NCBI RefSeq assembly: GCF_003334815.1 | Contig: NZ_QOWO01000057.1 | DNA from: Escherichia coli | GTDB lineage: Bacteria > Pseudomonadota > Gammaproteobacteria > Enterobacterales > Enterobacteriaceae | DNA: 13,444 nt | Reading direction: 5' to 3' (one strand) | Shown: piece by piece, positions 8,246 through 8,503 of the stretch | How the letters are laid out: the number at the start of each line of letters is the position of its first letter | How positions within the stretch are numbered: position 1 is the first letter of the stretch | The notes under the pieces: model-generated | The model's database searches: none | Seen by the model: the letters and a program-made list of their open reading frames with translations, nothing else | What the model was told of the DNA's origin: nothing | Translations under genes and position numbers: made by a program

Positions 8246-8503
8246 TTAACGCGGAGAAATCCCGTAATGTGCAATGCAGCGCCAGCCACCATCCTGCTGA
8301 CAATAAACTGATTCCGTATGCCCAGGGATCACCCATTGAATTTCCTCGCCAGGCGGACAGGTCAGCCAAATGCATAACCCGCAGCCGCCGCGTAAATCAC
8401 GGGGAATATCGCTGACGCGAAAAGTCATGCCCGCTGCCTGCAACGCCTTGCGGGTTTGTATGACGCCGACCGTGGAGTGAAATAAAAACAGATACTCTTT
8501 CAT
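8246..8503 (-). CDS. Small cysteine-motif protein, DUF3343-like (putative Se/S carrier protein-like family), translationally coupled to yjiL
   Basis: 85-aa [50 protein letters not shown]... resembling the DUF3343 pattern (F-x-S-x...A-L...G...PR...CG). Its ATG at 8501-8503 overlaps the yjiL TGA at 8500-8502 (ATGA). No obvious terminator in the 64 bp before yjiK. Confidence 0.6.

Follow-up and report, generated by a model that had tools for sequence, protein, structure and literature searches.

The window analysed here, the whole stretch of 13,444 nucleotides (nt) from Escherichia coli contig NZ_QOWO01000057.1 (RefSeq assembly GCF_003334815.1), contains a short gene, ytiA, between yjiL and yjiK. 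It is an intact open reading frame (ORF) of 85 amino acids (aa) with an ATG start, located on the minus strand at 8246-8503, directly downstream of the yjiL ORF that ends at 8500. A preliminary description of the window had singled out this ORF as a DUF3343-like gene coupled to the yjiL stop codon and possibly missed or unnamed in reference annotations. We find that ytiA is the last gene of a conserved yjiM-yjiL-ytiA unit, in which yjiM encodes a double-cubane-cluster protein (DCCP) and yjiL an ATP-dependent activase, and that its product belongs to a family of putative sulfur/selenium carriers. The features referred to below are:

8246..8503, minus strand: ytiA coding sequence, 85 codons and a TAA stop, ATG start (ORF listing and translation, Pfam PF11823)
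8381..8383, minus strand: Cys41 codon (TGC) of ytiA, candidate sulfur- or selenium-carrying residue (family-wide conservation)
8372..8410, minus strand: codons 32-44 of ytiA, conserved loop D-I-P-R-x-L-R-G-G-C-G-L-C between strands 2 and 3 (alignment A1)
8249..8326, minus strand: codons 60-85 of ytiA, fast-evolving C-terminal beta-hairpin and tail (ratio of nonsynonymous to synonymous substitution rates, dN/dS, 0.37 for residues 51-85)
8500..8503, minus strand: ATGA, ytiA start overlapping the TGA stop of yjiL (read from the sequence)
8509..8515, minus strand: GAGAAAA, purine-rich Shine-Dalgarno-like tract in the yjiL 3' end, 6-12 nt upstream of the ytiA ATG
8500..9267, minus strand: yjiL, ATP-dependent activase of the acyl-CoA dehydratase activase family (358 bits to TIGR00241, cut-off 125; RefSeq)
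9277..10428, minus strand: yjiM, DCCP, first cistron (532 bits to NF040772, cut-off 350)

Sequence and annotation of ytiA

As a reading of the sequence the preliminary description was accurate: the ORF listing contains the intact 85-codon frame between yjiK and yjiL, and the FHS and ALQAAG strings that it quoted are found in the translation. Its annotation premise was wrong, as the gene is ordinary and known by name. In K-12 MG1655, NC_000913.3 4563668-4563925 is annotated as ytiA (b4715), encoding the "uncharacterized protein YtiA" YP_009518833.1, and the product has the UniProt/UniRef entry YTIA_ECOLI. Every E. coli RefSeq record listed names the gene ytiA, with the product given as "DUF3343 domain-containing protein" or "putative Se/S carrier protein", and the ytiA sequence was found in 5386 of 5426 complete genomes. 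We regard it as virtually certain that ytiA is a real and already known gene. We found no study of E. coli YtiA in the literature searched, where the name ytiA refers to a Bacillus L31 paralogue.

In 2014 the region was treated as a yjiK-yjiL spacer, to which Shimada et al. assigned an RpoD holoenzyme site with a yjiK promoter of the form CTGACC-19-TACAAT (Shimada et al., 2014; PMC3946193). This promoter motif falls inside the ytiA coding sequence (8335-8365 of the window, minus strand, codons ~47-57), and its -10 element reads TTCAAT in this strain owing to a synonymous change of Ile55 from ATA in K-12 to ATT. A promoter and terminator scan of 7000-12000 gave nothing informative near ytiA.

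The window contains 61 ORFs of at least 60 aa, so the length of the ytiA frame alone is not beyond chance; what places it beyond chance is the combination of its match to PF11823, its conservation and its substitution pattern, described below.

Organization of the yjiM-yjiL-ytiA unit

On the minus strand the junction of yjiL and ytiA reads ...aaacgcgcATGAaagag, with the ytiA ATG (8503-8501) and the yjiL TGA (8502-8500) having three bases in common, which agrees with the ATGA overlap noticed in the preliminary description. To place this junction in context we used an orthologue scan with one genome per species, which recovered 54 species with a ytiA orthologue, all of them Enterobacteriaceae apart from Hafnia. 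Scoring the junctions of these species together with those of the window, of K-12 and of two further loci gave 42 overlaps of the form (A/G)TGA, 12 one-base overlaps (TAATG, TGATG, or TAGTG) and two eight-base overlaps. The yjiL stop codon thus overlaps or abuts the ytiA start in all scored junctions in which the ytiA start was resolved, the Hafnia copy being the exception. This conserved geometry supports translational coupling, the mechanism of which we infer. The purine-rich tract upstream of the ytiA ATG has equivalents in other genomes (GAGGA in K-12, GGAGG in Klebsiella, AGGAAG in Kosakonia), and a GGAG-like tract is usually present at a distance of 6-12 nt; it is a consensus match to a putative Shine-Dalgarno sequence, and such a match is not evidence of function.

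The three genes are contiguous and in the same order in each of the 54 species' loci with enough upstream DNA, and the flanking genes yjiK, yjiN, and mdtM vary among loci. YjiM matches the solved DCCP structures 6ENO and 7YYL (E = 4e-75), and the NF040772 model that it hits is titled "double-cubane-cluster-containing anaerobic reductase". Matches to FNR-type sites occurred only at chance level, none of them in the yjiN-yjiM spacer. The seven cysteines of YjiM (40, 59, 78, 108, 273, 304, and 335) are spaced by X18, X18, X29, X164, X30, and X30; there is no literal match in E. coli YjiM to the published DCCP motif CX19CX18-19CX29CX166-170CX32-34CX32C, and all seven align with those of 6ENO.

Conservation and selection on the reading frame

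The ytiA frame is intact in 51 of the 54 species, frameshifted in two, one of which also has a damaged yjiM, and interrupted by a contig end in one. The two frameshifted copies, in Citrobacter amalonaticus AUH_CA_2023_1 (L059) and Enterobacter sp. EA-1 (L060), accompany a yjiM that is likewise truncated or poorly matching, and are due either to errors in assemblies made from long reads or to the decay of yjiML-ytiA as a whole.

Across 52 species the median dN/dS (pairwise Nei-Gojobori) is 0.22, lower in residues 2-50 (0.16) than in residues 51-85 (0.37), and dN/dS between the window and the K-12 allele, which differ by 15 nt and 5 aa, is 0.156. Within Escherichia, 16 distinct ytiA alleles are all intact, their polymorphic sites are distributed 15/11/36 over the three codon positions, and the ratio of nonsynonymous to synonymous polymorphism (pN/pS) is 0.22. 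In one and the same alignment of the 52 species pN/pS is 0.26 in the ytiA frame, and four other frames all give 1.16 or more; the antisense frame with the same wobble positions gives 0.39, low as expected, and stop codons interrupt the two other sense frames, one of them in all 52 species and the other in 42. The gene is under purifying selection that is specific to its frame. The comparison of substitutions among strains that the preliminary description had proposed therefore yields the pattern of coding rather than non-coding DNA.

The window is E. coli chromosomal DNA, and its positions 7200-9400 are 100% identical to many strains of the species. Relative to K-12, ytiA and yjiL (8246-9267) are the most diverged genes (5.8-5.9% of nucleotides, versus 0.2-4.5% for their neighbours), and E. 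coli has two classes of ytiA allele, with identities of at least 99% in 1938 genomes and of 90-95% in 3344, which suggests an old dimorphism or a recombination patch. In some strains, such as O145:NM FWSEC0002 (L069, 3001-5778), a 2.2-kb gene for a pentapeptide-repeat protein has been inserted between ytiA and a yjiK-like gene. With this insertion the last ~15 codons of ytiA are swapped, giving a product of 88 aa, so the C-terminal tail of YtiA appears dispensable or variable.

Family membership and predicted fold

YtiA has a single Pfam match, to PF11823 (Se_S_carrier, formerly DUF3343; i-Evalue 6.1e-14, 51.7 bits), in which residues 3-59 align with positions 1-57 of the 69-position model; the family assignment and Pfam hit anticipated by the preliminary description are thereby borne out. 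All homologues listed carry PF11823, and the sizes of YtiA and its orthologues (78-89 aa) fit the single-domain DUF3343 proteins of ~80-100 aa. NCBIfam has no model for YtiA. By sequence its branch is narrow: an exhaustive phmmer search of 1.84 billion representatives returned 45 matches, several of which are frameshift artefacts. When proteins are clustered at 90% identity, the group of K-12 YtiA (P0161, P0162, P0165) also takes in 255-aa YjiL proteins, one of them as the representative, which share no sequence with YtiA; this mixture is a probable artefact of the clustering, for which assemblies with a read-through fusion of YjiL and YtiA may have provided the bridge.

An alignment of 22 orthologues (A1) has invariant residues in the N-terminal part (L5, L7, F8, H9, T11, G13, V14, R18, Q22, and F28) and in the loop that follows (D32, I33, P34, R35, L37, R38, G40, C41, G42, L43, and C44), and a poorly conserved C-terminus. 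AlphaFold2 predicts a ferredoxin-like fold of topology beta-alpha-beta-[loop]-beta-alpha-beta-beta, with a mean predicted local distance difference test score (pLDDT) of 87 and a predicted template modelling score of 0.77. The C-terminal part is modelled as strands 63-70 and 73-79, which are common to models of the family. Residues 31-40, with a mean pLDDT of 76, form the lowest-confidence block within the fold, only the last few C-terminal residues being lower, and the model suggests that the conserved loop presenting Cys41 is probably mobile.

In AFDB50, YtiA has 238 structural matches at E <= 1e-3. Of the best 50 listed, nearly every one bears a DUF3343 or Se/S-carrier name, and the full-length entries among them, which include Clostridia and Sebaldella proteins, reach template modelling (TM) scores of 0.75-0.92 over ~80 residues. 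YtiA is an ordinary full-length member of the DUF3343 family, with the same predicted fold. A sequence search of the PDB gave no significant match and no solved DUF3343 member, and fold searches against solved structures recovered only generic ferredoxin-like proteins (PII, CutA, Cas2, UreE, and DUF2179) at 2-17% identity. Two better-known classes of small protein were rejected: a PII-like signalling protein, for which there is no Pfam PII match and only a distant fold similarity (Foldseek E ~3e-3, TM ~0.55, identity 8-17%), and a TusA/SirA-like carrier (PF01206), since only PF11823 was matched and the YtiA motif is G-C-G-L-C, with no CPxP.

The conserved cysteine

Cys41 is retained in all 52 Enterobacteriaceae and Hafnia orthologues compared and in all six wider relatives, by which we mean those that still follow a yjiL homologue (at 74-82% identity of YjiM); it is also invariant in an alignment (A3) that includes relatives at 27-40% identity. 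The remaining cysteines are less constant. Cys44 is found in 52/52 orthologues, and in five of the six wider relatives its place is taken by S, G, G, A, and A; Cys49, present in 44/52, gives way to G or S in Klebsiella pneumoniae, Trabulsiella, and some Kosakonia; Cys76 and Cys68 occur in 26/52 and 5/52, respectively. A single highly conserved Cys was also described for DUF3343 proteins in general (Lin et al., 2015; PMC5322559).

The loss of Cys44 in the wider relatives makes a CxxC dithiol mechanism unlikely as the core function. A CxxC thiol-disulfide oxidoreductase was rejected on the same ground, and because the predicted fold is ferredoxin-like rather than thioredoxin-like. Judging from the residue pattern, single-cysteine chemistry, with a persulfide or perselenide on Cys41, would fit YtiA better than CxxC redox chemistry. 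The preliminary description had taken the CG-x-C motif to indicate a redox-active or persulfide-carrying cysteine; Cys41 is indeed invariant everywhere, and the second cysteine of the motif is not.

Gene contexts of relatives

The yjiM-yjiL-ytiA triad extends to more distant lineages, in which YjiM is 74-82% and YtiA ~39% identical. For the relatives P0142 and P0139, both ~39% identical, the preceding genes encode HGD-D and BcrAD_BadFG proteins; P0158 is preceded by the 3' end of a yjiL. Other relatives, at 29-34% identity to YtiA, are found in sulfur or selenium contexts: the gene for P0156 directly follows a TusA+DsrE gene, and that for P0153 shares 4 nt with the end of a gene for a class-V aminotransferase of the cysteine desulfurase/selenocysteine (Sec) lyase type. 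A third of these, P0191, is encoded in a metagenome island (L150, 239-8243) whose one strand carries Aminotran_5, TusA/DsrE, and DUF3343 genes, and whose opposite strand carries genes for SelA, a YedE-like Sulf_transp protein, TusA, a second DUF3343 protein, SelD, and Aminotran_5. L150 is in effect a compact selenium-utilisation island with two DUF3343 paralogues, and the sulfur/selenium-relay neighbourhood typical of the family is seen in the relatives L064, L067, and L150.

Published surveys point in the same direction. Lin et al. proposed DUF3343 as a Se/S chaperone and found no Se-specific DUF3343 subfamily; in Slackia, STRING connects an activase with two DUF3343 proteins, a Sec lyase, YedF, and an HGD-D subunit, all of them under consecutive locus tags (Lin et al., 2015; PMC5322559). 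The duf3343 gene is among the top genes overlapping selD (bioRxiv 10.1101/2022.04.13.486033). On the side of the reductase, proteins matching NF040772 were reported almost only from genomes that contain SelD (955/970), and a possible selenium connection of DCCPs, including a selenium-bridged cluster, was raised in the same preprint (Haft, bioRxiv 10.1101/2022.07.06.499078).

Proposed role of YtiA and alternative explanations

We propose that ytiA acts as the third cistron of the yjiM-yjiL-ytiA unit, the three genes presumably being co-transcribed. Ribosomes that end yjiL at UGA would most likely restart on the overlapping AUG of the AUGA junction, helped by the purine-rich tract, so that synthesis of YjiL would always bring synthesis of YtiA with it. 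Cys41, flanked by two conserved arginines, would be presented on the conserved, probably mobile basic loop, where it most likely carries sulfane sulfur or selenium as a persulfide or perselenide. The partner of YtiA would then be the double-cubane [8Fe-9S] reductase YjiL/YjiM, an ATP-driven system for which it would act as a small carrier or accessory, and to which it could hand a protein-bound sulfur or selenium species, or from which it could take one.

Selection on the frame, family membership, operon geometry, conservation of the cysteine, and the occurrence of relatives in sulfur/selenium-relay contexts are observed here. That YtiA is a functional partner of YjiL and YjiM we consider likely. 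Carrier chemistry with sulfur or selenium is put forward tentatively, at somewhat less than an even chance; it rests mainly on the contexts of the relatives, which agree with the proposal of Lin et al. and with the survey of selD overlaps. The explanation as a whole, a coupled third-cistron sulfur/selenium carrier or accessory of YjiL/YjiM, seems to us evenly balanced between right and wrong.

Several observations weigh against this explanation. No selenium or sulfur relay gene adjoins ytiA in the window, where its neighbours are yjiL, yjiM, and yjiK, and the literature searched contained no experimental paper on any DUF3343 protein. Its fold is of a generic ferredoxin-like kind, to which no solved structure comes close. 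YtiA also evolves much faster than its proposed partners, with identities of 51-89% in the loci of the 54 species versus 76-95% for YjiL and 86-97% for YjiM, which is unusual for a tightly docking subunit. Finally, the association does not extend to all DCCPs. A metagenome scan with an alignment of the E. coli and Carboxydothermus DCCPs gave 80 loci, mostly E. coli-like, with ~15 distant ones usable. Where YjiM is 79% identical or more and the scanned locus extends far enough downstream, a DUF3343 gene always follows yjiL; over all loci compared that are long enough, the gene is present down to a YjiM identity of 74%. Ten loci with YjiM at 61-69% identity have an activase and no DUF3343 gene within 6 kb by hidden Markov model and motif search. 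A search of the distant DCCP loci for the P-x(5-7)-C-G loop returned only spurious antisense ORFs. These ten loci are AT-rich, possibly from Firmicutes or Fusobacteria, and the published Carboxydothermus system was likewise described with only two components (PMC7317905). DUF3343 is therefore not an obligatory neighbour of DCCPs; its coupling to them is a lineage feature of Enterobacterales and a few other metagenome lineages with linked yjiM-yjiL, to which the literature adds the one example of Slackia, and is not universal.

Among the alternatives, YtiA could be a non-catalytic accessory, either a PII/ACT-like ligand-binding regulator or a chaperone of YjiL/YjiM, in which the cysteine is structural and no sulfur or selenium is transferred. 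We think this unlikely. The structural matches that it would draw on are at the level of the fold only and share 2-17% identity, both a PII T-loop and a nucleotide-binding motif are absent, and the best-conserved element is the loop containing the cysteine. The placement of relatives within cysteine-desulfurase, TusA, SelD, and YedE clusters, typical of atom-relay proteins, also speaks for the carrier.

A redox or metal/Fe-S mini-protein, with the C41-G-L-C44 pair and perhaps C49 serving as a dithiol-disulfide electron relay or as ligands of a cluster or metal, is rather improbable. The presence of both C41 and C44 in all 52 orthologues, and of C49 in most of them, would suit such a protein, as would the fact that its partners are Fe-S enzymes and a weak phmmer alignment of CGLC onto ferredoxin-type CxxC motifs (E = 0.054, not significant). 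Family-wide, however, only one cysteine is conserved, C44 being lost in most of the wider yjiL-linked relatives and C49 giving way to G or S in several genera, and the fold is not thioredoxin-like.

A chance frame in the yjiL-yjiK spacer, or a gene missed by annotation, might have been suspected from the many ORFs of the window and the spacer designation of 2014, and is refuted to the point of being negligible by the PF11823 match, conservation in 54 species, dN/dS, the frame control with its frame-specific purifying selection, and the existing annotation as b4715/YTIA_ECOLI.

The sulfur/selenium carrier proposed above also has a strong form, in which YtiA links double-cubane reductases to selenium and sulfur metabolism. 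In one version, YjiL/YjiM would act at low potential on a sulfur or selenium species bound to Cys41 of YtiA, for instance by reducing a persulfide, perselenide, or Se(0) and so releasing sulfide, or selenide for SelD; in the other, YtiA would deliver the bridging ninth sulfur (or selenium) atom of the [8Fe-9S] cluster. Such a link would be coherent, given the co-occurrence of DCCPs with SelD, the location of DUF3343 genes beside those for SelD, YedF, and Sec lyase, and the coupling of DUF3343 to the activase in 54 species and beyond; the Slackia cluster, which holds these gene types together, adds to these three independent comparative signals. We nevertheless hold this strong form to be distinctly unlikely.

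With ytiA already annotated, the gene-finding claim itself is moot, and the interest that remains is in the possible link between DUF3343 and double-cubane reductases. The strict coupling of a putative sulfur/selenium carrier to a DCCP activase provides a testable handle on the roles of both DUF3343 and E. coli YjiM, and suggests selenium/sulfur mobilisation under anaerobiosis as a place to look for the role of yjiML-ytiA.

The end of the window

Away from the yjiM-yjiL-ytiA unit, homology to K-12 ends at 13368, and the last 77 bases (13368-13444), which contain the inverted-repeat-like GGTAATGCTGCCAACTTACTGATTTAGTGTATGATGGTG, correspond to the end, or to flanking sequence, of an IS1-family element in strain 720632. 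From this match an IS1-type insertion seems to start downstream of mdtM.

Comparison with known systems

YtiA resembles the DUF3343/PF11823 family in its profile match, in the family size of 80-100 aa, in its one invariant cysteine within a P-R-x(5)-C-G loop, and in a predicted fold that matches members from Clostridia, Fusobacteria, and Proteobacteria. It differs from them in that ytiA is not beside selD, yedF, or a Sec lyase gene and is instead coupled to a DCCP activase, and in that its Enterobacteriaceae branch has the extra cysteines C44 and C49. With PII/CutA/ACT-type small domains, which provide its best solved-structure matches, YtiA shares the beta-alpha-beta-beta-alpha-beta core.

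A probable analogy can be drawn with the SirA-like TusA/YedF and the SufE/CsdE proteins, persulfide carriers that work with cysteine desulfurases and are likewise small, with a single conserved cysteine on an exposed loop. The genes of TusA/SufE-type carriers adjoin, and often overlap, those of their partner enzymes, much as relatives of YtiA follow TusA/DsrE and class-V aminotransferase genes. There is no homology between YtiA and these carriers, YtiA having no PF01206 match, no CPxP, and another topology, and by this analogy its loading is putative.

The closest counterpart of YjiM and YjiL is the DCCP/DCCP-R system of Carboxydothermus hydrogenoformans (6ENO, 7YYL; PMC7317905, PMC9351452), in which YjiM corresponds to the DCCP and YjiL to the ATP-dependent activase, encoded by adjacent genes. 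That system has no small third protein, and a ytiA-type cistron is confined to the Enterobacterales-like branch, in which YjiM is at least 74% identical.
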